From Poseidonia sp. (lineage in GTDB: Archaea; Thermoplasmatota; Poseidoniia; Poseidoniales; Poseidoniaceae), in contig JAYPIL010000005.1 in NCBI GenBank assembly GCA_038127845.1, forward strand, positions 1-51,060: a stretch of 51,060 nt of DNA. The letters run 5' to 3'. A program made the translations under genes and the position numbers. Shown here one piece after another: positions 7,040-51,060 of the stretch. Every line of letters begins with the position of its first letter. Position 1 is the first letter of the stretch. Under the pieces are notes generated by a model. It was not told the DNA's origin and did no database searches. It saw nothing but the letters and a program-made list of their open reading frames with translations.

Positions 7040-7041
7040 GC

Positions 7042-8676
7042 ATGCGCTACGATGTTCTGAACCTCATTCTGGGCTGGACACTTCTGGCCTTGACAGCACC
7101 GCTGTTGCTTTGCGCATTGCTCACGTGGTGGCTCGACGGATGGATCCTTGCAGCGCAAGCCTTCGTTCCCGCAATTTTGGTGAGCGGGGGGTTGGGCCTT
7201 GCGATGTTGGGGTTGTTTACCAGGACGGATTCGGCAGAACGGTTACGAGACCTCGAAGCCTTTGTGGGCGTCGGGTTGGTATGGCCTGTGACGGTCCTGA
7301 TCGGTTCGCTACCGTATTGGTTTGGCGGGATGTTCAACGGACCCTTTGTCGACGATGCAGCCTTGATTGACATCGCCCGTGGTTTCGTGAATTCGTGGTT
7401 TGAATCCATGTCAGGCTTCACGACGACAGGTGCCACCGTCATTTCGCACAACATGAGCCCGAACTGTATTCCAGGAACCACCCTTGATTGCATCAACGCC
7501 CAACCTCGCGGCTTGTTGCTCTGGCGGTCGCTAACGCAGTGGCTCGGGGGGATGGGGGTGGTCATGCTCGGAATGCTTGTGCTCTCCCGAATCATCGGCG
7601 GAGGTATGGCCTTGGCTCGTGCAGAACTGACAGGGCCATCGCTTTCGCGACTTCGGCCAAAGCTCCGGCAAACGGCCATAGCGCTTTGGAGCCTCTACTT
7701 GTTGTTGACCGTCGTCGAGATGCTGGCGCTGAAATTTATCGGAGGAATGTCGCTGTTTGACTCCATCAATCACGCCTTGACCACCATGCCGAGCGGTGGA
7801 TTTTCAACCCGAGACGCCAGCATCGCCCATTATGATTCCACCACTGTGGAACTCATCATCATTGTATTCATGTTCTTGGCGGGTGTCAATTTTACCCTGA
7901 TGTGGTTGATGGGTGCAGGCGACATGAAGGCCGCTTGGGCCGACGAAGAATTTCGGACGTATGTTTTCTATATACTCGCAGCCGTCACCGTCATTACACT
8001 CTCACTCGTGCTGGTCGGCCAGGCGCTTGATGAGGCTGTTCTTGACACGCTCTTCCACGTGTTATCCATTGGTACCTCCACAGGGTACGCATCCGCTGAC
8101 TACGGCTCATGGCCGGTTGTTGCTCGCATCATCATTTTCCTGCTCATGATCGTCGGCGCCTGTGCAGGGTCAACCAGCGGCGGCCTGAAACTCATGCGTA
8201 TCCGCATTGGCCTCAAAGTGGCATTTCGAGAACTGGCGAGGATTTCACAGCCGAGAAAAATACACATCATTCGAATGAACAAGCAGGTTGTTGAGCAAAA
8301 ACAGGTCAGCCTTGTGGTGGGGATGTTGTTTATCTGGGTGATTTTGTTTGGTTTCTCATGCATCATTCTCGCCATGATGATGCCTGATGCGACATTTGAG
8401 ACCATCCTCTCCGTCGCCGCTTCCGGTTTGGGGAATACCGGTCCTGCTCTCGGGGCTTACGGGCCCACTCAAACCTGGGCGGGGATGAATTCTTGGTCCC
8501 TCCTCTTCAGTTCGCTGTTGATGTGGTTTGGTCGTCTCGAACTGCTTACCGCCATTATTGTCCTCCATCCACGCAGTTGGCGACGTGAAGAGAAATCCGA
8601 TGCCGAACGTCAAGGTATGGCGATGGTAAAGCGCATCCTTGAGCGAGATGAAGACGATCAAAACAACGTCGTTTGA
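7042..8676 (+). CDS. trkH: Trk potassium uptake membrane subunit TrkH
   Basis: FESMSGFTTTG, LWRSLTQWLGGMG, SGGFS, STGY, GACAGSTSGGLK, GNTGPA, MWFGRLE pore-loop motifs. Confidence 0.95.
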   Translation: MRYDVLNLILGWTLLALTAPLLLCALLTWWLDGWILAAQAFVPAILVSGGLGLAMLGLFTRTDSAERLRDLEAFVGVGLVWPVTVLIGSLPYWFGGMFNGPFVDDAALIDIARGFVNSWFESMSGFTTTGATVISHNMSPNCIPGTTLDCINAQPRGLLLWRSLTQWLGGMGVVMLGMLVLSRIIGGGMALARAELTGPSLSRLRPKLRQTAIALWSLYLLLTVVEMLALKFIGGMSLFDSINHALTTMPSGGFSTRDASIAHYDSTTVELIIIVFMFLAGVNFTLMWLMGAGDMKAAWADEEFRTYVFYILAAVTVITLSLVLVGQALDEAVLDTLFHVLSIGTSTGYASADYGSWPVVARIIIFLLMIVGACAGSTSGGLKLMRIRIGLKVAFRELARISQPRKIHIIRMNKQVVEQKQVSLVVGMLFIWVILFGFSCIILAMMMPDATFETILSVAASGLGNTGPALGAYGPTQTWAGMNSWSLLFSSLLMWFGRLELLTAIIVLHPRSWRREEKSDAERQGMAMVKRILERDEDDQNNVV

Positions 8677-10214
8677 CCGGGTGCTGCCCCGGTTTCTTCC
8701 GGCTCATCGGCCTTTTCTTCCACGGATGTTGGCTTCACCACTTCTTCTTTGACGGTTTGGGGGTCCTCTTTCGCAGTGACCTCTTGGATGGATTGTTCGT
8801 ATTGAAGCATCGCTGCCTCATAGGCTGCAATCAGTTCTTTTGACGAACGGCGGGACTTCGCCATACCGGTGAGCGAAAGGTGCTCGTCGGCGTTGAGTCC
8901 AAGCATCAACGAGGTCTCGAAGGCATTGGGGTCGCCAAGCGGTGATTCGGCTTGGAGCAAGGTCATCAGCGGTTGAAGCAAATCCTCACGCGTGGCGACC
9001 TTGTTGGTGGTACCAAACTCAGCGAGTTTGGTCAAGATGCTCGTTCTACCGATGCTGCCTGAGCGTCGCAGGAAGTGTGGATAATTTGGGTAAAGTTTCC
9101 CTTCGAGCGGTGATGCGTTGGCAACCGATGCAGCAAGGGAACAAAGATGCTGTGTCCAATATGTGGAACGATGAGCCTGATTGATGAAGCGCCCCATAAA
9201 ATTACGATCGGCTTGGACCAATGTTCGGCTCCCTCTGCGCACGCTGTTGCCGTTGGTAAACAGGTTGGCGTTGTTCCAGTGCACCCAATTTAGAAACTCG
9301 CTGGGTTCTTTGTCTATTGATCGGATGAGTTGTGATGCTTCAATGCTCTTCCGTTGCTTGTAGAGGCGTTCAAGTCCTGGAAAAATTTCAACCGAGACAT
9401 CTCGCTGGGTTGTCTCTGAATGTTCGAGCACCTTGGCCTTCGTCAATGCGGCCCCGTTCAAATCTGCTGCCATCACCTGCAAATCTCTGACCAAGGCTCT
9501 CAAATCACCGTGGTTGGTCTTGACCAAGGCATCCACTGCAGCAGGTTCGAAGGTGATGTCCTCTTCTCGTAGGACTCGACGTGCGATACGACGCAACGCA
9601 TCGTCACTTGCACGAACGAAGTTGACCTTGATGATGTGTTTCGAGAAACGGTCCCGGGTCGACCTCCACGATGACGTCCGTCCCCAAAGCCCCATCTCAT
9701 CGTTGCAGGCAAGGACGATTGGTTGGTGCGTTTTCTCGAGCAATCTCAGTAACTCTGCCTTTCCTCCGGAATCGCCGGAAAGGGCTGTGTCGGGTCGCTC
9801 GTCACCCGCCATAGCTCGCTGAATTCGGTCTTGGCTGATCTCCCTCAACCCTCCCGACAAATGGTCCACTTCGTCAAGAAGGATGAGGGTCCGTGACGGA
9901 GGTGCGGTTGGGTCGTGAAACAATGAGCGATGGATTGCCCCGCTGGTTGCTGCTTTCCGAATCGCAACGGCATTCCGAGCATCGCTTGCGTTCAACTCAA
10001 TGACGTTCCACCCCATGTCTTCAGCAACAGCCCGAGCAACCGTGGTTTTTCCTACCCCGGGAGGTCCGATCAAAAGAATCGCCTTTTTCTTCGGAACGCC
10101 CTCTTTCCATTCGTCAAGCCATGCGCGAATTTTTCTTCGTTGAACTTCGTTCCCTTCCAGCAACTGTTCCGAACGAGGGCGATGGCGTTCGGTCCAATCG
10201 CTCGGAAGACCCAT
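8658..10214 (-). CDS. rfcL: Replication factor C large subunit
   Basis: WTERHRP, GPPGVGKTT, IELNASDAR, LLDEVD, GDLRA, acidic tail ending in PIP-like QTTLF. Start set at MGLPSDW. Confidence 0.92.
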   Translation of the reverse strand: MGLPSDWTERHRPRSEQLLEGNEVQRRKIRAWLDEWKEGVPKKKAILLIGPPGVGKTTVARAVAEDMGWNVIELNASDARNAVAIRKAATSGAIHRSLFHDPTAPPSRTLILLDEVDHLSGGLREISQDRIQRAMAGDERPDTALSGDSGGKAELLRLLEKTHQPIVLACNDEMGLWGRTSSWRSTRDRFSKHIIKVNFVRASDDALRRIARRVLREEDITFEPAAVDALVKTNHGDLRALVRDLQVMAADLNGAALTKAKVLEHSETTQRDVSVEIFPGLERLYKQRKSIEASQLIRSIDKEPSEFLNWVHWNNANLFTNGNSVRRGSRTLVQADRNFMGRFINQAHRSTYWTQHLCSLAASVANASPLEGKLYPNYPHFLRRSGSIGRTSILTKLAEFGTTNKVATREDLLQPLMTLLQAESPLGDPNAFETSLMLGLNADEHLSLTGMAKSRRSSKELIAAYEAAMLQYEQSIQEVTAKEDPQTVKEEVVKPTSVEEKADEPEETGAAPGQTTLF

Positions 10215-10284
10215 GGTAAACCTATCAGCGGGAGGGTTCTTCAACCTTGATGCCGGGAGGCTTGGTTTTTGGCAAAGGTGTTGC

Positions 10285-11952
10285 TCATTCGAGTGTGTCC
10301 ATCGCAACACGCTGTTGTTCACCGGTGTCTCGGTCCCTCAGGGTGACGGTGCCGTCCTCGAGCGACTGGTGGTCGACGGTGATGCAGGTTGGAACACCGA
10401 TTTCATCTGCCCTGGCATAACGTCGTCCGATGGACCCGCTTCCATCGTACATGGAGACAACACCCGGTTTTGCGCACAGGCGTTCGTGAAGTTCCTTCGC
10501 CAGGGTCTCCATACCGTCTTTTTCAAACAACGGGAAGATGGCCATGTCGACGGGGACAATGGATGACGAGAGTTTCATGAGCGTGTATGCCTCATCGTTT
10601 TTCTCAATTTCGTGATAGGCGTGGTCGATGATGTGCCAGAGGATTCTGTCGATGCCGAAAGCGGGCTCGACCACATGAGGGATGTACCATTCTCCGGATT
10701 CTTTCACCGTGTGCTTGTTTGGTTTGACATGCGCCTGTTCAACCACGACCGTATCGCCCGAATCCATTGTCAGGGTTACCGGAAACACCGTTTCTTTCGG
10801 GAGGTCTTCAACCGCTGATTTTACTTGACCCGCCAGCGCCTTGAATGCAGGCCCTGCGGTAGCACCATTGATGGTCCATGCATCGATTTCAACGGTCCTT
10901 GGCTCGTCAAATTCCCGCCTGGCTCGAAGGGATTTCCCCGTGGCTTGTTCGTGCTTTTCAAGATCGTAACACCCGCGATGGGCAATTCCGACGCATTCGA
11001 CCCAGCCGTAACTTCCGTGGATTTCTGCGTCCCAGCAATCCTCTGCATAATGTGCCATTTCGTCTTGTTCATGCTGACGGAAACGGATGCGCTGGGGATC
11101 AATGCCAACTTGCTCTAGAAAATCCACGGTACGGCCCATGAACGAAGCGACCGTAGCATGGCGGATGGTTCCGCTTTCGTAGGCTTCCCGAAGGGTGGAG
11201 GTCGTCTCAACAAGTGTATCTGGCAACAGCGTTAACGGCTTGCCGTCCCATGGAGTGAGGTCTTCGTTGCTTGGTGCTTCAGGGTCGATGAAGTACTCAA
11301 GTTCAGCCATGTTGAATTCTCGAAGGCGAATCATGCCCTGTCGAGGAGCGATTTCATTGCGGTAGCCTTTGCCCACTTGCATCGCTCCGAATGGAAGACG
11401 TTCTCTGAAGTGCCGGTAAAGCGAGTTGAATGAAGTGAACATGCCTTGGGCTGTTTCGGGACGAAGGAATCCCGCTCGACCTGATGTGCCCGCTCCGATG
11501 GTGGTGTTGAACATCAAGTTCTGAGCACTGACTTCACTCCAATCTGCTTTTCCACAAGCAGGACAGGGTGGATTTGCTTGATGGAGCAGGTTTTCCAACT
11601 CATCACGCTTCAGCGCATCGGGGTTTGAATGATGTTGTTCGAGGAGGGTGTCAGCTCGACTTGCTTCTTCACAAGCAAGGCACTGGGTCATGAAATCAGA
11701 GAACTCGCCGACATGGCCGCTCGCTTCCAACACAGCGTAGGGCGTGACGGTGGGGCAGGAAATCTCAACGATGTTGCCCATTTTGAGCCAGTGATTCAGC
11801 CACAACTGGTTGACTCTAGATCGCATCCGACCTCCGACCGGGCCGAAATCATAGAGTCCCTTTGCACCGCCGTGAATTTCAAACGCAGGCAGGAGAAAAC
11901 CCCGTCGTTTCAGCATGCCGCTGAGTCGGTCGAGGCGTTTCTCATCGCTCAT
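10285..11952 (-). CDS. glyS: Glycine--tRNA ligase (alpha2 type)
   Basis: YDFGPVG, LRPETAQG, YRNEIAPRQGMIRLREF, EPAFGIDR, GSIGRRYARADEIG anticodon-binding domain. Confidence 0.97.
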   Translation of the reverse strand: MSDEKRLDRLSGMLKRRGFLLPAFEIHGGAKGLYDFGPVGGRMRSRVNQLWLNHWLKMGNIVEISCPTVTPYAVLEASGHVGEFSDFMTQCLACEEASRADTLLEQHHSNPDALKRDELENLLHQANPPCPACGKADWSEVSAQNLMFNTTIGAGTSGRAGFLRPETAQGMFTSFNSLYRHFRERLPFGAMQVGKGYRNEIAPRQGMIRLREFNMAELEYFIDPEAPSNEDLTPWDGKPLTLLPDTLVETTSTLREAYESGTIRHATVASFMGRTVDFLEQVGIDPQRIRFRQHEQDEMAHYAEDCWDAEIHGSYGWVECVGIAHRGCYDLEKHEQATGKSLRARREFDEPRTVEIDAWTINGATAGPAFKALAGQVKSAVEDLPKETVFPVTLTMDSGDTVVVEQAHVKPNKHTVKESGEWYIPHVVEPAFGIDRILWHIIDHAYHEIEKNDEAYTLMKLSSSIVPVDMAIFPLFEKDGMETLAKELHERLCAKPGVVSMYDGSGSIGRRYARADEIGVPTCITVDHQSLEDGTVTLRDRDTGEQQRVAMDTLE

Positions 11953-12457: not shown

Positions 12458-15400
12458 ATGGCTGATATCGTATACTTGGATTCCCCATTGGAATCCGATG
12501 TGTTGTACGAGCGTCTCTGCCCTCCTGTCCGCCAGTGGTTCAAGGACAAGTTTCCTGATTTCACACGTCCACAGAAATTAGCCATCCCCGCCATCATGGA
12601 CAACAAGCATTTGCTTCTCTGTTCACCCACAGGGTCGGGAAAAACCCTCACGGCTTTCTTGAGTGTCATCGACCAACTTGTCCGTCTTGCCTTGGACAAA
12701 AAACTCGAGAAAAAAGTGTATGCTGTTTACATTTCGCCGATTAAGGCATTGGCAAACGACATCCAACGCAACCTGATCGGTCCGCTCAACGAAATCAAGG
12801 AGCATTATCTTCCAGACCGTGCTCAAGAGATTCGGGTGGGTTTGCGAACCGGAGACACGTCCCAATCCGATCGCCAAAAAATGCTGAGGAACCCGCCTCA
12901 TATTCTCATCACAACGCCGGAAAGTCTTGCCATCGCCATCACGTCACCTCGGTTCCAGCCCATCGTGAGTGAAGTGGAGTACATGATCATCGACGAACTG
13001 CACTCCATGGTGCCCACCAAGCGAGGCGTTCATCTTTCGTTGACGCTTTCTCTTCTGGACTCTTTGCTGAAAAACCCTGTTCAACGGATTGGAATTTCCG
13101 CTACCATGGAGCCGTTGGAAACGGTCGCTGAATATCTTGTGAGCAGCGATGACCGAGAAGCACGTGGGCAAGTTACCGAGGTTTCGATTGCAAAGATTTC
13201 AGGTTCGCGAGAACTGGATTTGGATATCCTGATCACCCACCCGAAATTTAGTGATCTTCCGGTGATGAAGGTGCTCGAATACAACATCGAGGCCGTTGCC
13301 GACCTCATCAGCGCTCACACCACAACGCTGGTCTTTGCCAACACTCGAAAGATGACGGAAACCATTGTGCAAAAACTGCGCCCGTTCCTTGGCGATTTGG
13401 TCGCAGGTCATCACGGTTCTATGGATAAAAACATCCGTCTTGATGTTGAAAAGCGACTGAAGTACGGTCATTTGCGAGCGGTCGTCACGTCCTCATCGCT
13501 TGAAATGGGAATTGACATTGGTTCAGTCGACCTTGTTGTTCAAGTGGGCAGCCCGGGTGACATCGCTACGGCACTGCAGCGCATCGGTCGAGCGGGTCAC
13601 CACGTGGGGGGCATTCCAAGAGCTCGGTTCTTACCTCAAAGCGTTGATGATTTGCTCGAATTGGCCGCCTTGCAAGCGGCTATCCAAACGGGGGATATGG
13701 ACCGTCTTGATTTCCCACAAAACTGTCTCGACGTGGTGGCTCAATTTATGATTGGGCTGGTCATCATCAATGACTTGGACATTGACGAGGCCTACGAAAT
13801 CATCGTCAACTCATGGTCCTATCGAAATTTTGAGTATGACGATTTCATTGAAGTGCTCGATATGCTTGAGGACGAGCGCCGAGTTTGGGTTGATTGGGAA
13901 GAGAACGTATACGGGAAACGAGGTTATTCTCGTATGATTTACTACACCAACATCGGCACCATTGCCCCTGACAATTCCTATCTCGTGTTCAATGCTGAGG
14001 GATCTATCCTCGGGAAACTTTCAGGCTCCTTCGTTTCCAACCTTCGAAACGGAGACGTCATTCTTCTCGGAGGTTCAACCTACAGAGTGACCAACATCCA
14101 GGGAACTCGCGTCAACGTGACCAGTGTGACGGGACATCGGCCGACGATTCCGTCTTGGTCGGGTGAAGCACGAAGCAGAAGTCGCGAACTCTCGCAAGCA
14201 CTCTTGGACCTCATCGGCCACTGCATGGTCTCGCTTCGAAGGGAACAGGACCCTCGCTTGTTGCTAAGGGACGTGTACGGACTTTCAAACGAAGTCGCCA
14301 ATGCAATTGCACGGCACCTCGAAGAACATTCGTTGGACTCGTTCCAAGTCCCCGATTCAAAGCGCATCTTGGTCGAACAAGTGGTGACGGGCGCCTTCCC
14401 CACTTACATGATCACGACCTGTCGTGGTCGAGGATTCAACACAGCCCTCGGGTACTTCATGGCCGGCATGGCTGAAGCCAACGGTATCAATGTCATCGAA
14501 ATGTCGTTTGACGAAAACGGGTTGTTGCTCAAGACCTCGCAAGAGGTTGACCCGGGTTCGTTGTACACGGCATTCCAGGAAAACAACCACATGGATGTGA
14601 TTGAGCGCTACATCATCAACACGCAAATTTTTGCCAAGCGGTTCCGAGAGGTTTCAGGTCGCTCGCTGATTATTCCAAAACGAATGGGTGCAGAAGAAAT
14701 CAGTCCGCAGCAATTCCAGCAGCGAGCTGAAGCCCTTCTCCAAAAACACCGCACGTTGGACGGCAGTTTGTTGATGCGTGAAGCAAAAAACGAAATTCTG
14801 TTCGGCGACATCGATCTGACCGGTCTCGAGAGTTTCCTACGTTCGTGCAGTACGGGTGACGCCCGGATTGTTCACACCAAAGTGGTGGTGCCTTCCCGTT
14901 TGGGGATGTCCCTCTTCATGTCCGCCTTCGAGGACTTGATGTCCATGAAAACAAGGGCATTTTTGGTCAAGGATATCGACCCGTCCATCCTTCAGCGTTT
15001 GCTCGGAACTCGCTCGCTCGCCACCGAACTATCGAGCGAACAATTGACCACTTACTACTCCGATAAAGCACCCGTCCCAACCAACGCCAAGGAATTGTTC
15101 AGGCTCATGAGCCACGGTGGGGGATTGGACCGTCAATTCAACAATCCGTTGTACCGAGAAAAACTCAACGACATCCCTCACGAGACCATCCGTGGATGGG
15201 TGGAGGAACTCTGTCAGACAGGTCAAATTACGAAACTTGACGGCACGGGTCAGGAAGAACTCGATGGCAAATGGTTCACAACCTACATGGGCGAAATTCA
15301 CGGAACGCTCGGATGCCTTGCGGTTGCGGGTGGAAAAGATGTGGAAAATCTTCTCGAGTTGCACACGCGTGGGCTCACCTACAACATGGCGACCGCTTTT

Positions 15401-40238: not shown

Positions 40239-42494
40239 ATGGGACGCAAAGAAGACAACATCAAGAAGGCAACAGAAGTCATGCACATTCTTCCACAAAT
40301 CAGGAACTTGTGCATTGCAGCGCACATTGACCACGGGAAGACCACGCTCTCGGACAACCTGATCGCAGGTGCGGGCATGATGTCCAACGAACTCGCTGGT
40401 GCAGCCCGTGTGCTGGACTTTGACGAGCAAGAATCCGCTCGTGGAATCACCATCAACGCGGCTTCCGCTTCGATGGTCCACGCTGTGCAAGATGAAGATG
40501 AGGATGGGAAGCCGGTGGAGGCGGATGGCAAGCCGAAAATGACGGACTATCTCATCAATCTCATCGATACTCCCGGGCACGTTGACTTCGGTGGTGACGT
40601 CACCCGTGCCATGCGTGCTGTTGACGGATGTTTCATCCTCGCTTGTGCGGTTGAAGGCCCCATGCCCCAAACAGAAACCGTTGTCCGCCAAGCCCTCAAG
40701 GAGAAGGTCAAGCCAGTTCTCTTCATCAACAAGGTCGACCGACTCATCAACGAGTTGCAAGTCACGCCCGAAGACATGATGGCCCGCTTTACCGAGACCA
40801 TCAAGAAAGTCAACAAGCTCATCAAGCAATTCGCTCCTGAAGAGAAGAAGAAGGACTGGCAAGTTTCTGTTCAAGACGGTACGGTCGCCTTTGGTTCGGC
40901 TTACCACAACTGGGGAATCACCGTTCCCTACATGGCCAAGTCCGGTATCTCGTTCAAGGAAATTTTCGAGTACTGTAACAACGAGGACCAAAAGACCCTC
41001 GCTCAAAAGGCGCCCGTTCACGAAGTGCTGTTGGACATGGCTGTGACCAAACTTCCTGGTCCAATTGAAGCCCAAAAATACCGTATCCCCAACATTTGGA
41101 CCGGTGACTTGGAGTCCGAAATCGGACAAGCCATGATGAACTGCAATCCAGATGCAGAATTGGCCATGATGGTCACCAAGATCTGGATGGACCCCCACGC
41201 TGGTGAAGTGGCCGTCGGTCGTGTGTACTCAGGAGCCATCAACCAAGGCGAATCCGTCTACGCTATCGGTGCTGCAAAGTCCGAGCGCGTGCAACAGGTC
41301 GCCATGATGGTCGGTGGTGACCGAATTACCGTGCCCAAGGTCGTTGCTGGAAACATCGCTGCCGTGACGGGTATTCGTTCCGCTGCTGCTGGTGTGACCC
41401 TTTCCCGGGACAAGGACTTCACGCCCTTTGAAGCAATCCGTCACTACTCCGACCCTGTCGTCACCGTTGCCGTTGAGCCAAAGAGCATGAAGGACCTCCC
41501 CAAGTTCATTGATGCACTCCGTTCTCTTGCTAAGGCCGACGCCTCGTTGCAAGTGACGACCAATCAAGAAACGGGTGAAGCATTGCTCGCTGGTATGGGT
41601 GAACTCCACTTGGAAATTACCGTGTACCGAATTGAAGAAGAGCAGAACATCAAGGTCAAGGTCAGTCCTCCCATTGTCGTTTATCGCGAAGGTATCCAAG
41701 GCAACAACCGTGGAAATGCATTTGAAGGAAAGTCACCGAACCGTCACAACCGGTTCTTCTTCGAAATCGAAGCCCTCCCTGAGGATGTCGTCGGCGCTCT
41801 CCGCTCTGGCGAGCTCGGTGACGGACCGGTTCGCAACAGCGACGCCAAGGAAGTTGGAAACAAATTTGGCGAATTGGGCATGGACAAGGATGTCATGCGA
41901 AAGATCTACGCCATCAACGGAACCAACGTTCTCGTCAACGACACCAAGGGTATCCAAAACCTGCACGAAACCCGTGAACTCATCATCGAGGCTTTCAACG
42001 AAGTGTGCGTGAAGGGACCCATTGCTGACGAACCCGTACAGGGCATGTTCGTTCGTCTGGTTGACGCCAAGTTGCACGAAGACGCCATCCACCGTGGGCC
42101 TGCTCAAACCATTCCGGCAGTCCGAAACGGCATCAAGGGCGCCATGATGCGTGCTCGTACCGTTCTTCTTGAGCCCATGCAAAAGGCGTTCATCTCGGTG
42201 CCAAACGACTGGCTGGGTCAAGTTACCCGTGAAGTGACCACACGGCGTGGTATCATCGAAGACATGCCTTCAGAAGGCAACGTGACCACCGTGGTTGGTG
42301 TCATCCCCATCGCTGAAACCTTCGGTTTCTCCAACGATATTCGTGCTGCCTCCCAAGGCCGTGCTGTTTGGAACACGGAAAACCTCGGCTTCGAGATGTT
42401 GCCACCTCAGTTGTTTGACAAGGTTGTCGGAGAAATCCGCCAGCGCAAGGGCCTCAAGCCCGAGCCAAACCCCGAATCTTACTACGCTGATTGA
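40239..42494 (+). CDS. fusA: Elongation factor 2 (aEF-2)
   Basis: AHIDHGKTT, RGITI, DTPGHVDF, NKVD, GMGELHLE, SPNRHN, HEDAIHRGPAQ diphthamide loop. Confidence 0.98.
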   Translation: MGRKEDNIKKATEVMHILPQIRNLCIAAHIDHGKTTLSDNLIAGAGMMSNELAGAARVLDFDEQESARGITINAASASMVHAVQDEDEDGKPVEADGKPKMTDYLINLIDTPGHVDFGGDVTRAMRAVDGCFILACAVEGPMPQTETVVRQALKEKVKPVLFINKVDRLINELQVTPEDMMARFTETIKKVNKLIKQFAPEEKKKDWQVSVQDGTVAFGSAYHNWGITVPYMAKSGISFKEIFEYCNNEDQKTLAQKAPVHEVLLDMAVTKLPGPIEAQKYRIPNIWTGDLESEIGQAMMNCNPDAELAMMVTKIWMDPHAGEVAVGRVYSGAINQGESVYAIGAAKSERVQQVAMMVGGDRITVPKVVAGNIAAVTGIRSAAAGVTLSRDKDFTPFEAIRHYSDPVVTVAVEPKSMKDLPKFIDALRSLAKADASLQVTTNQETGEALLAGMGELHLEITVYRIEEEQNIKVKVSPPIVVYREGIQGNNRGNAFEGKSPNRHNRFFFEIEALPEDVVGALRSGELGDGPVRNSDAKEVGNKFGELGMDKDVMRKIYAINGTNVLVNDTKGIQNLHETRELIIEAFNEVCVKGPIADEPVQGMFVRLVDAKLHEDAIHRGPAQTIPAVRNGIKGAMMRARTVLLEPMQKAFISVPNDWLGQVTREVTTRRGIIEDMPSEGNVTTVVGVIPIAETFGFSNDIRAASQGRAVWNTENLGFEMLPPQLFDKVVGEIRQRKGLKPEPNPESYYAD

Positions 42495-42505: not shown

Positions 42506-42994
42506 ATGGCCGGCGTCGTCGTTGGCTTGCACGTCAATCCTGATGGGGGCGTTCCGAAATGGCCCCAATCCTCGCTCGACATCACCGTTTCAGGGTGCGT
42601 CGGTGACCGTCAAAACGACACGCGCCATCACGGAGGACCAAACCGTGCGGTGTGCTTGATGAAAGAATCGGTCCTGCAAGCCTTGCAAGAAGAAGGCCAT
42701 CCAATTGGCCCCGGAACCACCGGTGAAAACATCTTGATCGGAGGAATTGACGATGTGGTGTTGGGTGCAGAAACGGTCCTTTCCATCGGTTCGGTGCGCT
42801 TGCAATTGACAGGTGATGCACCTCCGTGCAAAACCATCCGTGCCTCGTTTTCAGAGGGTGCATTCACGGCTTTAAGTCACAAACGAAACCAAGAGCGGAC
42901 GCGCTGGTATGCGAGGGTGTTGACACCGGGGACGGTAGAAATTGGTGATGACGTAGCAGTCGTCAGTGAAGACGGGCCAGTTGGAAATCCGTGA
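42506..42994 (+). CDS. MOSC domain protein
   Basis: GGVPK, GDRQ...HHGG..RAV, GENI, PPCK, WYARVL.PG.V..GD. Confidence 0.88.
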   Translation: MAGVVVGLHVNPDGGVPKWPQSSLDITVSGCVGDRQNDTRHHGGPNRAVCLMKESVLQALQEEGHPIGPGTTGENILIGGIDDVVLGAETVLSIGSVRLQLTGDAPPCKTIRASFSEGAFTALSHKRNQERTRWYARVLTPGTVEIGDDVAVVSEDGPVGNP

Positions 42995-44714
42995 GCTCAC
43001 GCAACGCCACCATCGCAGGATTGTTTTCCAATCGGTCCAAACAAGCATGGGCTTGCGCATGGTAAGCTTCTGCCATTTCCTTCGCATAGGCCACAGAGCC
43101 GAGTTCAGCAAGGGCCGCAAGTCCGTCTTCAAGGGCAGATGCGTCAACTTCGTCGCCTTTTCCGAGGACGGCCAACAAGCGTTGCTTGACCGGGCTATCT
43201 GGTTGGCGAAGCGCGTGAATCACCATCAACGTGCGCTTTCCTTGAGCGATATCGGAACCTGCCGGCTTGCCGAGGGTGGCTGAGTCTGAGAGGACATCGA
43301 TCACATCGTCCATCAACTGGAAGCAAAGCCCTACTGCTTTGCCCCAATCGGCCATGAGTTGGATGATTTCTTCATCGGCTCCGGAAATTCGAGCGCCGAT
43401 TTCAGCACAAATCCAGAACATCACGGCCGTCTTTCCTTCGATCATTTCGAGGTAATCGTCTTCGGAAACGTCCAATCGGTCTTCGAACTCAATATCGAGT
43501 TGTTGGCCTTCACTGACTCGTCGTACCATCCATGCAATTCGATTGACCAAGGGTGCCACGTCCTCGGGCTCCAGGTTCTCTGCCTGAACAAGTCGCTCAA
43601 AGGCAATCGCCAACATGGCATCGCCAGCATTAATGGCGGTTGGCATACCGTATTCAACATGGACCGCGTTTCGTCCCCTTCGGATTTCATCGTCATCCAT
43701 GATGTCATCGTGGACCAGAGTAAAGTTGTGGACCGTTTCAATGGCTGCGCCAATGTCCAAGAGGCCTGCATGAGTGTCGCCGACGGCTTTTGCAATGAGC
43801 CACGGGAGCGTGGCACGCATACGTTTTCCTCCTCCTTCGACCAGGTGCATCATGGCGTTTCCAAGTCGTTCATGACGGGATGCTCGTAGACTGCTTTCTA
43901 TTCGGAGTTCGATGAGCGGCTTGACTTCCATGATGGAGGTCAGCAGGTCGGCACCTTCGGCATTGGGAAGCATGTGGCTGACGTCGCCCATGTCGTGAAT
44001 CGTCTCGTCAGCAAGCGTTGTCAAGGCTGCTGGATTGTTGTAATTGGTCCACCAATCCTCGGACATGACCCTGCTTGCAATGCATCGGAACCATGGCGCT
44101 ATGGCCTCCTCCGCTGGGCGTTCTTCGACCAACATGGCTTCCAATTCCTTCTGTGACACCCACATGATGTTGGCCACTTCGTTGGGGTTCGGATTCACAT
44201 CAACATCAGCGCACATGACGAGGATGTGGTCAATTTCTCGTTCAATCCACTCGGTATTCATTCGTGCCGCGTAGCGCATTTTCGTCATGAACGTCATGTC
44301 GTCGGTTGATACGGTGAAAGGGTCGATGCCCAATTCCTGTTCCAGTTTTCGAACGGCCGCACGTTTGACCCCCATGGCGTTGACTTCATCCATCTCTTCG
44401 GGTGCATGCAAGGGGTGTGAGCAACATGCGTTCGCCCAAACATGAGGGAACGTCACCTTGTCAGCCGATCGCTGTTGGAGCAACATCTCTCCTTTGGAGT
44501 TGAACAGCAAGAGACTGAATGCTCGATGAAATGAACCTGGTCCTCTGTGCGATTCGAGTTTCGACATAGGGCCTAGAACTTCGTCGTGTTCACTGACACG
44601 GATAACCGCTTCAGCCATCAAGGTGGCTTGGACCGGGTTCGCTTCAGCCAAAGCAGCCCGTTGGTCATCACCCAAGTCCACGCTCGGGACATCACCGATA
44701 CCGTACCCTGTCAT
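42963..44714 (-). CDS. Fused type 1 isopentenyl-diphosphate isomerase / geranylgeranyl diphosphate synthase
   Basis: N-half HRAFS, LQQRS..KVTFP, NACCSHP, EREID, PWF; C-half GGKRMR, HNFTLVHDDIMD..RRG, GQQLD, KTA, FQLMDDVID. Confidence 0.93.
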   Translation of the reverse strand: MTGYGIGDVPSVDLGDDQRAALAEANPVQATLMAEAVIRVSEHDEVLGPMSKLESHRGPGSFHRAFSLLLFNSKGEMLLQQRSADKVTFPHVWANACCSHPLHAPEEMDEVNAMGVKRAAVRKLEQELGIDPFTVSTDDMTFMTKMRYAARMNTEWIEREIDHILVMCADVDVNPNPNEVANIMWVSQKELEAMLVEERPAEEAIAPWFRCIASRVMSEDWWTNYNNPAALTTLADETIHDMGDVSHMLPNAEGADLLTSIMEVKPLIELRIESSLRASRHERLGNAMMHLVEGGGKRMRATLPWLIAKAVGDTHAGLLDIGAAIETVHNFTLVHDDIMDDDEIRRGRNAVHVEYGMPTAINAGDAMLAIAFERLVQAENLEPEDVAPLVNRIAWMVRRVSEGQQLDIEFEDRLDVSEDDYLEMIEGKTAVMFWICAEIGARISGADEEIIQLMADWGKAVGLCFQLMDDVIDVLSDSATLGKPAGSDIAQGKRTLMVIHALRQPDSPVKQRLLAVLGKGDEVDASALEDGLAALAELGSVAYAKEMAEAYHAQAHACLDRLENNPAMVALRELTDFQLARLH

Positions 44715-44768: not shown

Positions 44769-45575
44769 TCATGCAACGAGTCTTGTCCCGACGACAGGAC
44801 GGCCAAGGCAAGCATCTTCCACACGTTGATCGTGTTCACCACTGACCAGCAACACCTCAATTTCGTTCTCAGCAACGAGGAATCCACGTTGAACCTTGAG
44901 GCCAATACCGCCGGTAACATCCATCTCCGTAGCGTGTTCGCCCTCAAACAGTTGCTCAGTGCCGAGCGTTTCAATCAAAACATCCGCTACGCCTTCCTTG
45001 GGTGGTTGGGCCAACACGCCGTCGACACCACCCATTGCAAACACGAGGCGTTTCACACCATCGATTTCGTTGGCGAGGCGGACAACCAAATCATCGCCCG
45101 ACAGTATGCCGAACATCTGTTCATCGCAGTCCACCACATCGCCATAGGTGACGACAACGATGCCGCGTGGCGCTTCTTCGAACAGGGCGAGGTCGCCTTC
45201 AAAGGTGGGTCCTGTGTTTCGGGCCCAGGTATGGGGGGGAAGCGAAACAGCCGAGATGTCAAGTTTGGTCAGTGCCCCCATAACGTGCGCATTGAGCTCC
45301 ATCATGTCCTCTCGCACGGCCTCAACCGCTTGTTCTTGTGTCAGTTCTCCTTCGAAGACTGCGCCATCCAATTTCCCATCTGCCAAACGATATTGCTTTG
45401 CTTTCAGGTGGCCGAATGAGCCGGCTCCGTGGACCAAAATCACGTCCATGCCGGCTGACAAACATGCATCGATTTGGTCTGCAAGCGAGTCGAGGATGTC
45501 GGAGCGTACGGTTTTCATGGCGTGCTTTTCGGTGATGAGACCTCCCCCCCATTTCACCACCACGCGTTCACGCAT
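44769..45575 (-). CDS. ipk: Isopentenyl phosphate kinase
   Basis: VKWGGGLIT.K, LVHGAGSFGH (IPK His), GDVV, ILSGDD, DVTGGI..K; directly upstream of IDI-GGPPS. Confidence 0.92.
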   Translation of the reverse strand: MRERVVVKWGGGLITEKHAMKTVRSDILDSLADQIDACLSAGMDVILVHGAGSFGHLKAKQYRLADGKLDGAVFEGELTQEQAVEAVREDMMELNAHVMGALTKLDISAVSLPPHTWARNTGPTFEGDLALFEEAPRGIVVVTYGDVVDCDEQMFGILSGDDLVVRLANEIDGVKRLVFAMGGVDGVLAQPPKEGVADVLIETLGTEQLFEGEHATEMDVTGGIGLKVQRGFLVAENEIEVLLVSGEHDQRVEDACLGRPVVGTRLVA

Positions 45576-46811: not shown

Positions 46812-47984
46812 ATGGTGGATGTAGCAGTGGTCGGTGCCGGCCAAACAAAGTATGGAAATCATCCTTCAGGGCTCAAAGGCATGTGGGCGGAATCGGCATC
46901 CAAGGCCTTCTCGAGCATTGACGGGGATTTCCTCCCTTCCATGGTTGACGAGGCCTTCATTGGAAGCATCGCCTTTGGCGGCTCACAACTCGGGAACACT
47001 GCTGCGTTGCTCACAGAACATTCCGATCTCGATGGTATCTCGGTGAGGCGTGTTGAAAACGCCTGTGCTTCCTCCGGTTTTGCCTTCCGAGATGCTTGGA
47101 TGGCCATCAAAAGCGGTCAAGCCGATGTGGTCGTGGCTGGCGGGATCGAGAAAATGAACGACTTGACCCCCGAACGGCGCCGTTATTGGCTCGGCGTATC
47201 GGGAGACACGGAATGGGAGCGCCTTGCTGGATTGACGTTTCCTGGCACCTACGCATTGATGGCACGACGCTATTTCCATGAATTTGAGGCTACCCACGAC
47301 GATTTGGTCCACGTGAGCGTGAAAAATCATCTTCACGGCTCCACAAACCCGTTGGCTCACATTCAGAAAGAGGTCAGTTTCGAAAAAGCCGCAAGTGGCT
47401 TCATGGTCGCAGACCCGTTAACGCTCTACGATTGCTGCCCAACCTCCGATGGTGCCTCTTGTGTTGTTCTGGCCGCCGACCACGTTGCCAAATCCCTCAC
47501 GGACACACCCGTTTGGGTTCGTGGTTCGGGGGCTGCATCGGACCACCTTGCCCTTCATGACCGACCCTCCATCACGCAATTGAAGGCCACACAACAAGCA
47601 GCAGAACGTGCCTACGGTATGGCGGGTCTGTCAGCCAACCAAATCGACGTGGCAGAGGTACACGATTGCTTTACCATCGCTGAGGTGCTCGCCACGGAGG
47701 ACCTTGGTTTCGCCAACCGTGGGGAAGGTGGTCAGTTTGCTCGGGAGGGGAGAGGCATTCTCAACCAAGGCCAAACAAGTGTCAACGTGAGTGGTGGACT
47801 GAAATCCAAGGGTCACCCCCTCGGCGCCACGGGGACAGGTCAAGTGGTTGAGGTGTTCAAACAGCTCCGTGGCGAAGTGGAATCATCTCGTCAGGTCCGA
47901 GATGCTGAACATGGTTTGACACACAACGTCGGCGGTTCCGGAGCCACCTGTGCAGTCCACGTCTTTGGGAGGGACCGAGCATGA
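46812..47984 (+). CDS. Archaeal-type thiolase (acetyl-CoA C-acetyltransferase)
   Basis: VENACASS, GIEKM, KNH...NP.AH, DGA, EVHDCFT, NVSGGLKSKGHPLGATG, HNVGG. Confidence 0.95.
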   Translation: MVDVAVVGAGQTKYGNHPSGLKGMWAESASKAFSSIDGDFLPSMVDEAFIGSIAFGGSQLGNTAALLTEHSDLDGISVRRVENACASSGFAFRDAWMAIKSGQADVVVAGGIEKMNDLTPERRRYWLGVSGDTEWERLAGLTFPGTYALMARRYFHEFEATHDDLVHVSVKNHLHGSTNPLAHIQKEVSFEKAASGFMVADPLTLYDCCPTSDGASCVVLAADHVAKSLTDTPVWVRGSGAASDHLALHDRPSITQLKATQQAAERAYGMAGLSANQIDVAEVHDCFTIAEVLATEDLGFANRGEGGQFAREGRGILNQGQTSVNVSGGLKSKGHPLGATGTGQVVEVFKQLRGEVESSRQVRDAEHGLTHNVGGSGATCAVHVFGRDRA

Positions 47985-48811
47985 CCTCCGAAGTCTGGAT
48001 GGGCTACCTTGTCGACCACCAACCTGATTTCACGGTGGTTCAATCGCCCTTCGTGTTTGAACAAACCCGCGTTTTCGGGGCTGACAGCGATGCCACGACC
48101 CTCACGGTTGCAGGTATACTTCATCGCCTCAAGCATGAACCCATTTCGACGCTGGGTGTACCTGAAGGGATTGATGCCGATACCGTCATGGCTGCATGCG
48201 ATCTTCATGTTCACGGGGATGAGGATCAGGGTGAACCGGAATGGGACGTGTTGCTCAGTGATGAAGCCACGATTGTCATCGCTCGCCAAGGGGCGGAGGT
48301 CGAACTGTCGGCGTTCGATGTCGAGGTGGCGGTCGACGGAGAGTTTCATACCGCCATGGATGCGGCATGGGAACGTGAACTGAACGCCTTCCACGTCAGC
48401 CAGGGTGCCTATGTTTCAAAATCCCAATACGAAGAGGCTGTAAAATCAAGATTAACACTTGAAGGCCAACGCAACTCAGACGGTCTTGTTTGGCCTCCTC
48501 GTTTCTCAACACAATTCGGGCCATCTGATGTTCCACGATACACGCTTGCACCGACGGGGACCGTGCAGTCTTGGACCACGCTGTCTGCTGCTGGGGCGCC
48601 ATCCGAGTTCGCCTTGAGGGCACCGCTCTTGGGTGGTATCAGCACCGTCATGCTCGAGCTTCACGATGGACCAAAGGGCGTTTTTCTTACGGTTGACGAT
48701 GAAGAGCCAACCCTCGACTTCGGCCTTTCAATGGAACTTGTGCTCCGAAGAATCTACGCGCAAGAGGGCTTTGTGCGATACGGTTTGAAAGCACGCGCCA
48801 TTCAGGATTGA
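47981..48811 (+). CDS. Thiolase-associated DUF35-type OB-fold protein with vestigial HMG-CoA-synthase-like N-terminus
   Basis: DSDATTL, GAYVS, L.G.R....WPPR, GTVQSWT, APSEF, MELVLRRIY...RYG.K; ATGA overlap with the thiolase. Confidence 0.75.
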   Translation: MTSEVWMGYLVDHQPDFTVVQSPFVFEQTRVFGADSDATTLTVAGILHRLKHEPISTLGVPEGIDADTVMAACDLHVHGDEDQGEPEWDVLLSDEATIVIARQGAEVELSAFDVEVAVDGEFHTAMDAAWERELNAFHVSQGAYVSKSQYEEAVKSRLTLEGQRNSDGLVWPPRFSTQFGPSDVPRYTLAPTGTVQSWTTLSAAGAPSEFALRAPLLGGISTVMLELHDGPKGVFLTVDDEEPTLDFGLSMELVLRRIYAQEGFVRYGLKARAIQD

Positions 48812-48848: not shown

Positions 48849-49865
48849 ATGGCGGGCTTTGGTGGAATGCGAAAAGGCAGAGAGGAAGCCAAAGACAACC
48901 TTAGTTACACCGAAGGGGGCGATTGTCCACGGTGCGGTGGGAACGCCCAAGACTCGACCATGGCGGGGTACCTGCAATGCGGTTCTTGCGGTCACGAGTG
49001 GGCGGATCCAAATTATGTGGAGGTAAGGAAGCGGCCTGAACCCCCTACCCACCGAAGAGATGCTGAGTTGATTGAACAGTTCAAGCAAGAAATGCAGTCT
49101 GGTGAGCTTGCCAATGTTCTTGGTGTCAAGAAGGACTTGACGGGCGAACAAGAACAATCGCTCAAACGTCTTGAAGACAAGTGGATGAGCGGTATGCAGG
49201 GGCATTACAATGCTGCTGCTGAAGAGCGTAAACCCCTCATGATCAGTTTTGACGATGACGACAACATTCTCTCGACCGAAGTGGCTGCCATCACCATCGT
49301 CTCCAATGGCTTTGACGGTGGTGAAGAAATTCGTCTTGAATACCCCGGGAGGGGTACTGAATTTTACGCCTACAACGAACGAAGCCCGACCGGTTGGAAA
49401 CGTGGGCCGAATGCCGAAACGACGGCTCGCTCCATCGCCAACGTCATCAACCGGTCATCCAAACTGGTCTACGCCAACCTTGAGGGTGTCCGAATTTCAT
49501 TTGAATTGAAAGACGAAAGCCTCAACGCTGCTTCCTTTGTCATCTTTGTTGACGATCCGGGCGGTACCGATATCGTTGCTGAGAAAGGAGGCGTGGTTTT
49601 GGACCATCGTGACTTTTCAACCATCCAGGACTATCGCAACGTCGTTGAGATGGTTCTTGAGGACGGTATCATTTCGCCGAGCGAAGACCAACTCCTCTGG
49701 GCGATGCGTGAACAATTGGGTATTGACGATGCCTACCACATCCAAATGGTCATGGACATCTGTGGAGAAAACACCCTGAAGGAATGCACGGGTTGTGGTG
49801 GAATGGCTGAATTGTATCCCGAGTATGCCGCATGGTATTGCCACCCTTGTGAATCATGGTGTTGA
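48849..49865 (+). CDS. Hypothetical protein with terminal zinc ribbons and TerB-like segment
   Basis: CPRC...CGSC at the N-terminus, VLEDGIISPSE..LL..MREQLGI, C-terminal CTGC...WYCHPC. Confidence 0.75.
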   Translation: MAGFGGMRKGREEAKDNLSYTEGGDCPRCGGNAQDSTMAGYLQCGSCGHEWADPNYVEVRKRPEPPTHRRDAELIEQFKQEMQSGELANVLGVKKDLTGEQEQSLKRLEDKWMSGMQGHYNAAAEERKPLMISFDDDDNILSTEVAAITIVSNGFDGGEEIRLEYPGRGTEFYAYNERSPTGWKRGPNAETTARSIANVINRSSKLVYANLEGVRISFELKDESLNAASFVIFVDDPGGTDIVAEKGGVVLDHRDFSTIQDYRNVVEMVLEDGIISPSEDQLLWAMREQLGIDDAYHIQMVMDICGENTLKECTGCGGMAELYPEYAAWYCHPCESWC

Positions 49866-49917: not shown

Positions 49918-49961
49918 CACAGTGGTCTCAAGTGGGTGGCCGTAATTTCATATGGGGACTC

Positions 49962-49969
49962 TTCATAAA
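49962..49969 (+). promoter_or_regulatory. Putative TATA box of the MamK-like gene
   Basis: TTCATAAA 31-38 nt upstream of ATG 50000; a similar TTCATAGA precedes the upstream gene. Confidence 0.35.
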
Positions 49970-49999
49970 CTCAAGCGGTATCCGAAAGCCAGTGAGCCT

Positions 50000-51025
50000 A
50001 TGGCAAAAGATGTGTTGTATATTGGAATTGACTTGGGAACATTCCGCTCGGTGATGGTTTCCTCTGACAGCCACGAAGTCGAAGAATTGACGGTCATTGG
50101 AACCCCCAAGGACCCCATCGCTCGGAACTTCCTGAAGCGAGATGTTCTTTTTGGACACGAGGCCCTCAAGAACCGCTTGGCGCTTAATTTGTTCCGACCA
50201 CTCGAGCTCGGTGTGATCAAGGACACCCCCGAAGATCGGGAATACATTGCTCACTTCATCACCCACCTCATCGGTCTATCCGACCCTGAGGACTACGACC
50301 GCGTGGTCGCTGTCATCGGTGCCCCAGCCGAGGCCAGCCACGTCGATAAGACGGCTATTTTTGACGCAGCCGCAGGTTCCGTCAACTCGGCCATGATCAT
50401 CTCCGAGCCGTTCGCTGTTGCTTACGCTCTTGACATGATCAACCACACCTTGGTCATCGACATCGGTGCCGGTACGACCGACCTTTGCCGTGTCTACGGT
50501 ACCATCCCGGGACCCGGCGACCAAATGCACACCGGCTACGCTGGCGATTATGTTGACAACGCCCTCATCAAGGAGATCCAGTCCAAGTACAACGGTGCTC
50601 AAATCACCAAGGACATGGCTCGACGCTGGAAGGAAGAGTACTCCTTTGTCTCAACCGCTACGCCCGACGAGCCAATTCTCGTTGACTTCTCCATTGAAGG
50701 GAAGGCCATGACCCTTGACATCACCGACTGCATGCAGCGTGCTTGCGAAGCCATCGTTGACCCCATCGTTGAGAACGTCAAGAAGCTCATTGCAGGTTCC
50801 AACCCTGAATACCACGACGAGTTCCGCAAGAACATGGTCCTCGCCGGCGGCGGTTCGTCCATCAAGGGCCTTGGTGCCATGATCGAGCGTCGCTTGTCCG
50901 ATATGGGCGATGTCAACGTTCACGTTGTCGATGACCCTGTCCGATTGGGTGCTATGGGTGGTCTTCGACTGGCCATGGAAGTCCCCGAGGACATGTGGAA
51001 GAACCTCACGCTCGCTTCCCGCTAA
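50000..51025 (+). CDS. MamK-like actin/MreB-family ATPase
   Basis: IGIDLGT (phosphate 1), SEPFAV, IDIGAGTTD (phosphate 2), AGDYVD, KEEYSFV, LAGGGS (adenosine). Start set at MAKDVL. Confidence 0.9.
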   Translation: MAKDVLYIGIDLGTFRSVMVSSDSHEVEELTVIGTPKDPIARNFLKRDVLFGHEALKNRLALNLFRPLELGVIKDTPEDREYIAHFITHLIGLSDPEDYDRVVAVIGAPAEASHVDKTAIFDAAAGSVNSAMIISEPFAVAYALDMINHTLVIDIGAGTTDLCRVYGTIPGPGDQMHTGYAGDYVDNALIKEIQSKYNGAQITKDMARRWKEEYSFVSTATPDEPILVDFSIEGKAMTLDITDCMQRACEAIVDPIVENVKKLIAGSNPEYHDEFRKNMVLAGGGSSIKGLGAMIERRLSDMGDVNVHVVDDPVRLGAMGGLRLAMEVPEDMWKNLTLASR

Positions 51026-51060
51026 GACGGACTTCCCGTACACGCTTCGCTGTTTTGGAC

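Follow-up and report, generated by a model that had tools for sequence, protein, structure and literature searches.

A MamK-family actin-like protein and its paralogue in Poseidoniales archaea

What might a relative of the magnetosome protein MamK be doing in a planktonic marine archaeon? The question is raised by the last gene of a stretch of Poseidonia sp. DNA of 51,060 nucleotides (nt), hereafter the window, which is the entire contig C5 (JAYPIL010000005.1) of a 1.86-Mb assembly of 104 contigs, 86% complete. This gene (50000..51025) encodes an actin-like ATPase of 341 amino acids (aa), called here paralogue A, the same genome carrying a second copy, paralogue B. A first-pass annotation had singled it out, from the letters of the window, as a MamK-like actin and as the best candidate there for an undescribed system. 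Paralogue A belongs to the MamK family in the wide sense, with the corresponding fold and nucleotide-binding residues, and it comes with a paralogue, a conserved gene order, a characteristic phyletic pattern and a marked codon bias. The best explanation as a whole, which is probably correct, is a MamK-type filament with lineage-specific partners, dispensable to its hosts.

According to the available part of the literature, no planktonic archaea are more abundant in the surface ocean than Marine Group II (Poseidoniales), which are uncultured; their cell biology is all but undescribed. A conserved pair of actin-like genes, one of them strongly codon-biased and each with kept neighbours of its own, is a concrete handle for experiments in heterologous hosts. 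MamK-like actins outside magnetotaxis are known already; what is new is the Poseidoniales subfamily pair, its candidate zinc-ribbon partner and its phyletic pattern, and neither paralogue B nor the conserved zinc-ribbon gene upstream figured in the first-pass annotation. No literature linking MamK, MreB or actin to Marine Group II or Poseidoniales was found by searches whose coverage stopped short of supplementary tables and subscription journals, nor, going by titles and the beginnings of abstracts, any paper with an archaeal MamK-like protein as its subject.

Sequence, structure and phylogeny of paralogue A

The motifs on which the MamK call had been based (VIGTPKDPIARNFL, AVIGAPAEASHVDK, SEPFAVAYALD, IDIGAGTTDLCRVYGTIPGPGDQ, KEEYSFV, PEYHDEFRKNMVLAGGGSSIKGL and DPVRLGAMGGLRLAMEVPEDMWKNL) are all present in the translation, and all seven have matching blocks when the protein is aligned residue by residue with chain 5ljw of solved MamK; this alignment is poor in gaps and pairs query residues 15-352 with residues 5-341 (E 3.4e-76, 259.8 bits). 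Among hidden Markov models (HMMs), the NCBIfam MamK model (NF040964) gives 360.9 bits (E 5.7e-108; 360.7 in a six-frame search of the genome), a score that falls below the curated NCBI cut-off of 400 for the subfamily. The BeeR model (NF053558) reaches 213.8 bits against a cut-off of 530, the MreB models TIGR00904 and PRK13927 reach 87.6 against 365.75 and 92.9 against 293, and the NCBIfam salactin model (NF053533) reaches 59.6 against 400. Pfam, which contains no MamK model, has MreB_Mbl as its best match (92.5 bits), followed by Salactin (PF25229), whose 50.4 bits exceed the Pfam cut-off of 27.1 and lie far below the MreB_Mbl and MamK scores, and by Volactin, at 30.3 bits below its cut-off of 35; ParM-type families gave no match in the Pfam scan.

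The AlphaFold2 model of paralogue A, built from a 27-row alignment, has a mean pLDDT of 91.9 and a pTM of 0.88, and its top Foldseek match in the PDB is the protomer of the MamK filament, 5ljv_A (TM 0.92/0.96, root-mean-square deviation 1.4 A, 39% identity), followed by BeeR 8r2n (TM 0.88) and MreB 1jcf (TM 0.82). Invariant in the 27 sequences are D11, G13 and T14 of the phosphate-1 motif, D154, G156, A157 and G158 of phosphate-2 and G283 of the adenosine motif, along with the DLGT, DIGAGTTD and GGGS columns, E136 of 'SEPF' being nearly so. A MamK-type actin fold with intact nucleotide-binding motifs is thus present, and so is the C-terminal 'LRLA..P..W..L' block of MamK (solved structures 5ljv, 5ljw and 5jyg), within a full-length alignment at 39-40% identity. 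The likeness to MamK is real and specific, yet below the curated MamK threshold.

Could the protein nevertheless be a non-polymerising ATPase of the actin fold, chaperone- or kinase-like (ASKHA), that merely resembles MamK? HSP70, HscA, FtsA, EutJ and PilM models do match it weakly, and polymerisation of paralogue A is a property extrapolated from its relatives. However, those matches amount to 16-36 bits against cut-offs of 130-820, where MamK scores 360.9 bits over the full length, the closest counterpart of the structural model is MamK in its filament form, and the characterised members of this branch (MamK, BeeR and saltatorellin) all polymerise according to the available parts of their descriptions, all of which makes such an ATPase very improbable.

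The phylogeny rests on a FastTree of 199 rows and an IQ-TREE (LG+C20+F+G4 PMSF) of 68 of these rows, hand-picked to represent each clade, after removal of one truncated sequence (L080) and of representatives covering fewer than 290 query residues; no named Magnetospirillum MamK is included, and 'core MamK' is defined by HMM score. The two trees agree, and MreB forms a clean outgroup (100/100). The first split after MreB separates a BeeR-like clade (99/91), identified by NCBIfam scores of 358-510 bits, and the next a clade that passes the MamK cut-off at 415-508 bits, with a support of 83/72 (P0162 at 508 bits, P0168 at 425, P0153 at 415, and P0160). Paralogue A branches outside this core, in a 58-row MamK-like clade (94/91) separate from BeeR and MreB. 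The first-pass distinction between MamK and MreB is therefore upheld by the HMM scores (360.9 against 92.9), the 5ljw alignment, the 5ljv_A match and the trees, in which no grouping with canonical MreB is seen; what had been missed is that the protein, closer to MamK than to MreB, lies below the 400-bit cut-off and outside the core clade.

Within the 58 rows, a clade of 33 (87/95) holds Thermoplasmatota, ANME-2, a set of long proteins and the Poseidoniales paralogues A and B, each of which is monophyletic (100/100) and sister to the other (100/98), so that their duplication predates the split of the three sampled families. The sister of A and B (99/89) consists of the long proteins (520-1230 aa, P0125-P0139), in which a lysine-rich, partly coiled-coil-looking N-terminal extension is fused to the actin domain. 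Two of them are labelled 'candidate division KSB1 bacterium', and one locus (L151:10001-12364) has UvrC and an M23 peptidase for neighbours; read as bacterial on these two source names and one locus, they suggest a transfer between domains, in either direction.

To what extent is this family found beyond magnetotactic bacteria? A search of 1.84 billion representatives gave 1337 proteins at E <= 0.001 and 149 at E <= 1e-30, and a scan of genomes, one per species, confirmed 385 relatives from 600 candidate stretches. The best 80 of these, which were kept, are all from bacterial metagenome-assembled genomes (MAGs), including Thermoanaerobaculia, other Acidobacteriota, Planctomycetota, Nitrospirota, Rhodothermales, Gemmatimonadota and others. 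Many organisms other than magnetotactic bacteria thus possess MamK-like actins, and MamK now appears as a specialised offshoot within a wide filament family whose members are for the most part uncharacterised. With such actins widespread in the absence of magnetosomes, and two of them already described, to speak of an undescribed system had been an overstatement.

One of the two is BeeR, the three-stranded tubular actin of Verrucomicrobiota, like paralogue A a MamK relative in non-magnetotactic organisms, and reported to polymerise in the part of the source available. It is the second-best family and structure match (E 1.4e-44 in the sequence search of the PDB), and differs in forming the separate, first-splitting clade and in a disordered N-terminal extension of 30-50 residues, described in the available text as its hallmark, which paralogue A lacks if translated from 50000. 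The other is saltatorellin (Saltatorellota), also MamK-like and non-magnetotactic, which according to the available part of its description forms filaments in E. coli and M. gryphiswaldense; compared by description only, it differs in being bacterial and in occurring alongside MreB and peptidoglycan. Salactin and volactin are, like paralogue A, archaeal actin homologues, and differ in belonging to other families, found in Methanotecta and not in Thermoplasmatota.

Host genome, paralogue B and phyletic distribution

The host is a Poseidoniales (Marine Group II) archaeon, and the archaeal origin supposed by the first-pass annotation is borne out on two counts. Proteins 75-96% identical to paralogue A carry the names Candidatus Poseidoniales, Poseidoniaceae, Thalassarchaeaceae or 'Euryarchaeota archaeon' (best 120 listed of 5086 proteins at E <= 1e-10, among 8000 candidates scored), and archaeal elongation factor EF-2 and ribosomal protein S7 are encoded on the same contig. 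Contamination or mis-binning is ruled out by these two genes and by the order-wide synteny of the region. In source annotations, the same close relatives appear as 'rod shape-determining protein MreB' or 'hypothetical protein', the first of which is misleading for Poseidoniales genes.

In line with the first-pass annotation, no magnetosome markers were found: MamI and MamP gave 0 matches in the 86%-complete genome, and so did mreC, mreD being left out of the genome-wide search. Inside the window, the genes upstream are a thiolase gene and two without a family match, with no mam, mreC or mreD gene among them, so that paralogue A stands beside a zinc-ribbon orphan and housekeeping genes, and not in a magnetosome cluster. 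The MamI search works, since it finds matches in two magnetotactic MAGs (E 1e-21 and 2e-17) and none in three other bacteria; a first control set had given no match until those two MAGs were added. MamP is a poor marker, with weak matches in 10 of 14 control genomes.

Paralogue B lies elsewhere in the same genome (G000), on contig C24 at ~14153-15178; it is 334 aa long and 48% identical to paralogue A (E 5e-104). A match to the pair was found in 129 of 201 sampled Poseidoniales genomes, usually in two copies, and in 18 of 24 genera. By family, A or B occurs in 99 of 99 genomes of f1, 2 of 2 of f2 and 27 of 99 of f3. Among the genomes listed, those of f3 genera without a match (g14-g17, g19 and g24) measure 1.3-1.6 Mb, and those of genera with matches mostly 1.6-2.2 Mb. 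The system is therefore dispensable in Poseidoniales, the small-genome Thalassarchaeaceae genera doing without it. In one single-contig genome of the same family as the window (G003:C1:1175435-1176441), the match to paralogue A is split into two adjoining parts (query residues 1-148 and 169-357), which may reflect a frameshift or a broken copy.

Beyond the order, the MamK-model search found no match in the 8 genomes of the sister order in the class. Across the phylum, 57 of 301 genomes have a match at E <= 1e-30, of which 7, of 1.8-5.5 Mb, are non-Poseidoniales, 4 of them exceeding the 400-bit cut-off (424-435 bits); ANME-2 and Methanosarcinales archaea also carry relatives. A link with the archaellum was considered and rejected: archaellin (PF01917) gives 126 hits in the same 201 genomes, and the two disagree at genus level in 5 of 13 f3 genera, g12, g13 and g21 having the actin without archaellin, and g19 and g24 archaellin without the actin.

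Neighbouring genes, expression proxies and possible function

Directly upstream of paralogue A, on the same strand, lies the c9 gene. This order is kept at 12 of 12 loci (the window and 11 others, from all three families), where crude open reading frame (ORF) calls give c9 homologues of 337-374 aa and a gap to the actin gene of 18-158 nt. In 20 of 20 further genomes, hand-compared coordinates place both genes on one contig, 46-234 nt apart (L023, where the crude caller gave no actin gene, was omitted from the later sets). c9 was found in 126 of the 201 genomes, distributed over the genera as paralogue A is, and has no match in three genomes with a B-type match only (G144, G141 and G135). The protein has an N-terminal and a C-terminal four-cysteine zinc ribbon, 8 invariant cysteines, and long invariant stretches, among them FDGGEE.R.EYPG.GTEF and PSEDQ..W.MR. 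It matches no Pfam or NCBIfam family over cut-off; its database homologues number 314 at E <= 0.001, the named ones among the 120 listed being all from Poseidoniales or Thermoplasmatota, and a search of the ESM Atlas returned Thermoplasmatota hypothetical proteins only. Its AlphaFold model (pLDDT 73.6) runs from a ribbon through a low-confidence helical stretch, a beta-rich domain (~144-250, the confident part) and a helical domain to the second ribbon. The sole Foldseek match in the PDB at E <= 0.001 is the flagellin FliC (4nx9, E 5e-4, TM 0.21/0.25), followed in rank by phage tail proteins, too weak to name the fold. c9 is acidic, with an isoelectric point (pI) of 4.59 overall and of 4.05-4.96 in five segments, and has no basic domain; the acidity of every segment weakens it as a candidate DNA binder.

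Actin-based partition systems such as ParMRC consist of an actin gene with a small adaptor gene adjacent to it, which is also the layout found here, and four-cysteine zinc ribbons such as the two of c9 are modules often used to bind nucleic acids. Is paralogue A then a DNA-segregating actin of the ParM or salactin type, coupled to the chromosome or other DNA by the zinc-ribbon protein? According to the available part of the work on it, salactin influences how DNA is distributed when ploidy is low, and its nearest subfamily is reported to be MamK. Yet c9 is acidic throughout and has no basic domain, the salactin model scores only 59.6 bits against its cut-off of 400, and small-genome genera manage without the system. 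The mobile-element context of ParM, Alp7A and AlfA is not found here, since throughout the order paralogue A keeps its chromosomal synteny with EF-2, S7 and isoprenoid genes, and the adjacent protein, acidic in every segment, is a weak candidate for a DNA-binding adaptor like theirs. The intergenic regions inspected showed neither a repeat array nor a centromere-like site, a weak point, no repeat search having been run. A segregating actin is on balance unlikely.

Paralogue B has neighbours of its own. At 13 of 13 Poseidoniales loci (L126 ~5931-11537 in the window's genome), the order is a subtilase gene (Peptidase_S8), paralogue B and a gene for a coiled-coil-like protein. The subtilases are 690-1140 aa long, and two copies inspected by eye have a C-terminal membrane span and a cytoplasmic tail; that of the window's genome has 1017 aa, Asp-rich acidic repeats and, again by eye, a short cytoplasmic tail. 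The protein after B measures 383-436 aa (426 in the window's genome) and shows heptad-like charged repeats. In other Thermoplasmatota, the gene after the actin often encodes a protein of 430-620 aa that combines a conserved N-terminal domain with a long stretch of charged repeats. In family f19 of Thermoplasmatota (L141:9264-9779, and L143), a CheD gene directly precedes the MamK-family gene, and the gene after the actin encodes 318-341 aa, with an N-terminal domain that by eye seems shared with the long coiled-coil-like proteins.

Bacterial relatives keep different company. At 23 of 47 bacterial loci (L047-L106; the crude ORF caller missed the gene at 33 of 80), a gene for a membrane-anchored Amidase_3 protein lies directly upstream (e.g. 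L048:6923-7987 and L048:9061-10410), and in four Nitrospirota-type loci a SPOR-domain gene lies downstream. This hints at a role in the cell wall or in division for that branch; with the M23 peptidase beside one long-form locus of the sister clade, it suggests a cell-wall function for some of the non-magnetotactic relatives. The MamK-like family thus recurs with lineage-specific partners, having been recruited, it appears, to a peptidoglycan amidase and SPOR proteins in many bacteria, to coiled-coil-like proteins in Thermoplasmatota and to a zinc-ribbon orphan in Poseidoniales.

These wall-related neighbours also bear on whether the Poseidoniales protein governs cell shape or envelope growth in the manner of MreB, as its public label would have it. 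MreB resembles paralogue A in its actin fold, its length and the usual database label, and MreB_Mbl is the best Pfam match. Volactin mutants have a shape phenotype. So do salactin mutants, in the part of the report available. Against this, the protein reaches 87-93 bits with MreB models whose cut-offs are 293-366, MreB is a clean outgroup in the trees, and 5 of 5 tested bacteria with a MamK-like gene also carry a true MreB over cut-off. Archaea have no peptidoglycan, and mreC was not found in the 86%-complete genome. Marine Group II cells of both families are coccoid and ~0.7 um in size by catalysed reporter deposition fluorescence in situ hybridization (CARD-FISH), as given in the available part of the source. 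Coccoid cells without mreC and without peptidoglycan argue against a rod-shape role, and an MreB-like function appears quite unlikely.

How strongly is paralogue A expressed? Codon bias was taken as the G/C-ending fraction at nine two-fold amino acids, and ranked among 1342 ORFs of at least 120 aa. Paralogue A, at 0.733, stands at the 97th percentile, above EF-2 (0.664, 90th), S7 (0.646, 86th) and paralogue B (0.637, 84th), with thiolase at 0.515 (27th) and c9 at 0.497 (20th). The EF-2-like skew noticed in the first pass is therefore real, and the codon bias of paralogue A matches that of highly expressed genes. In metatranscriptomes, the word share is small (0.07 and 0.05) in the only two runs, both from one study. 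Contigs 90-99% alike cover 50007-50530 and 50666-50868 in run X1, and 50126-50605 and part of c9 in run X2, EF-2 and S7 being covered too. This shows the presence of paralogue A in RNA libraries of related strains, and nothing beyond.

The reading that we favour combines these elements. Paralogue A would be an actin-like member of the MamK family in its wider sense, able to polymerise and to hydrolyse ATP; it would descend with B from a duplication at or before the root of Poseidoniales, be transcribed from its own promoter, and be the abundant subunit from which a MamK-type cytoplasmic filament is built. c9 may partner it, as an adaptor or assembly regulator acting through protein-protein contacts rather than DNA binding. 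B would form a second module with its downstream coiled-coil-like protein, possibly anchored through the membrane-bound subtilase, and in these coccoid cells the two modules would hold in place, or act as a scaffold for, a cargo other than magnetosomes. Polymerisation of non-magnetotactic MamK relatives has its precedent in BeeR and saltatorellin, and a network of actin and coiled-coil proteins in Desulfovibrio magneticus; in deep-branching magnetotactic bacteria, MamK works with coiled-coil proteins according to the available part of the literature.

Several points weigh against this filament with partners. The extrapolated polymerisation is itself one, and properties of MamK may not transfer to a protein that scores below the cut-off and branches outside the core clade. 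The c9 model has no informative structural relative, and a predicted complex with paralogue A scored 0.01, a result counted neither for nor against the partnership. Synteny extends, throughout the order, over the entire stretch from EF-2 up to the actin gene, so that the adjacency of c9 and A could be inherited gene order rather than function; the promoter-like element between them and the low codon bias of c9 argue against a simple operon, and their co-occurrence is counted over related, non-independent genomes. The coiled-coil reading of B's downstream protein was made by eye, with no Pfam match. The RNA evidence consists of assembled contigs from one study at 90-99% identity, which cannot exclude DNA carry-over, whose depth cannot rank genes and whose uncovered stretches are uninformative.

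A bolder version, which is improbable as it stands, sees a two-filament actin cytoskeleton, A under the acidic zinc-ribbon adaptor and B tied by the coiled-coil protein to the subtilase tail, organising a structure such as a localised patch of protein-degrading and adhesion machinery at the surface. If true, cells less than 1 um across would hold a two-filament cytoskeleton of MamK-like descent, shared with bacteria and discarded in streamlined open-ocean genera, and the patch would serve the surface degradation and adhesion on which these photoheterotrophs live.

Reading frame and other features of the window

The longest ORF at the paralogue A locus runs on the + strand from 49952 to 51025 (357 aa). 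The ATG at 50000 ('MAKDVLYIGIDLGT'), from which the first-pass annotation had read the gene, is the likelier start, since the great majority of close relatives among the best 120 listed have 341 aa, matches from other genera among the 201 Poseidoniales genomes start only near residues 14-17 of the 357-aa query, and the longer reading takes in a conserved A/T octamer. At 10 loci, by a hand count from 12 with the window included (the start of L030 was mis-set by the script, and L032 was left uncounted), the octamer lies 37-43 nt 5' of the conserved ATG, as TTCATAAA/G, TTGATAAA, TTGAAATA or TTGATATA, a position consistent with a TATA-like promoter element of paralogue A. The first-pass annotation had pointed to genes past position 51060 as worth inspecting; the contig ends 35 nt after the stop codon, and the assembly holds nothing further.

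Table 1. Features of the paralogue A locus, in window coordinates
Feature	Position	Strand	Remarks
Paralogue A, gene for MamK-family actin-like ATPase	50000..51025	+	341 aa + stop; ORF, HMM, PDB alignment, AlphaFold model
Possible 16-codon N-terminal extension	49952..49999	+	Probably 5' leader and promoter, noncoding
TTCATAAA, TATA-box-like A/T octamer	49962..49969	+	38 nt 5' of ATG 50000; putative function
c9 gene, acidic 338-aa protein with two zinc ribbons	48849..49865	+	Candidate partner of paralogue A
Palindrome TTCTATAGAA	49891..49900	.	Just 3' of the c9 stop codon

The palindrome is perfect, begins 26 nt past the c9 stop, and recurs in 4 of 12 loci (the window, L025, L026 and L027), with the variants TTCTATATAC in L022 and TCTATAGATG in L032. 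Further upstream, a 276-aa ORF (47981-48811, +) overlaps the thiolase stop by 4 nt and has no Pfam or NCBIfam match; it is missing from loci L029 and L031, both of which also lack the thiolase gene. At 40491-40545, within EF-2, metatranscriptome contigs of related strains skip 50-53 nt, with 2-5 other letters, most likely a small length difference between strains. Finally, a single 583-aa ORF (42963-44714, -) fuses a NUDIX domain with a polyprenyl synthetase domain, and is adjoined on the same strand by a gene of the amino-acid-kinase family (44769-45575).

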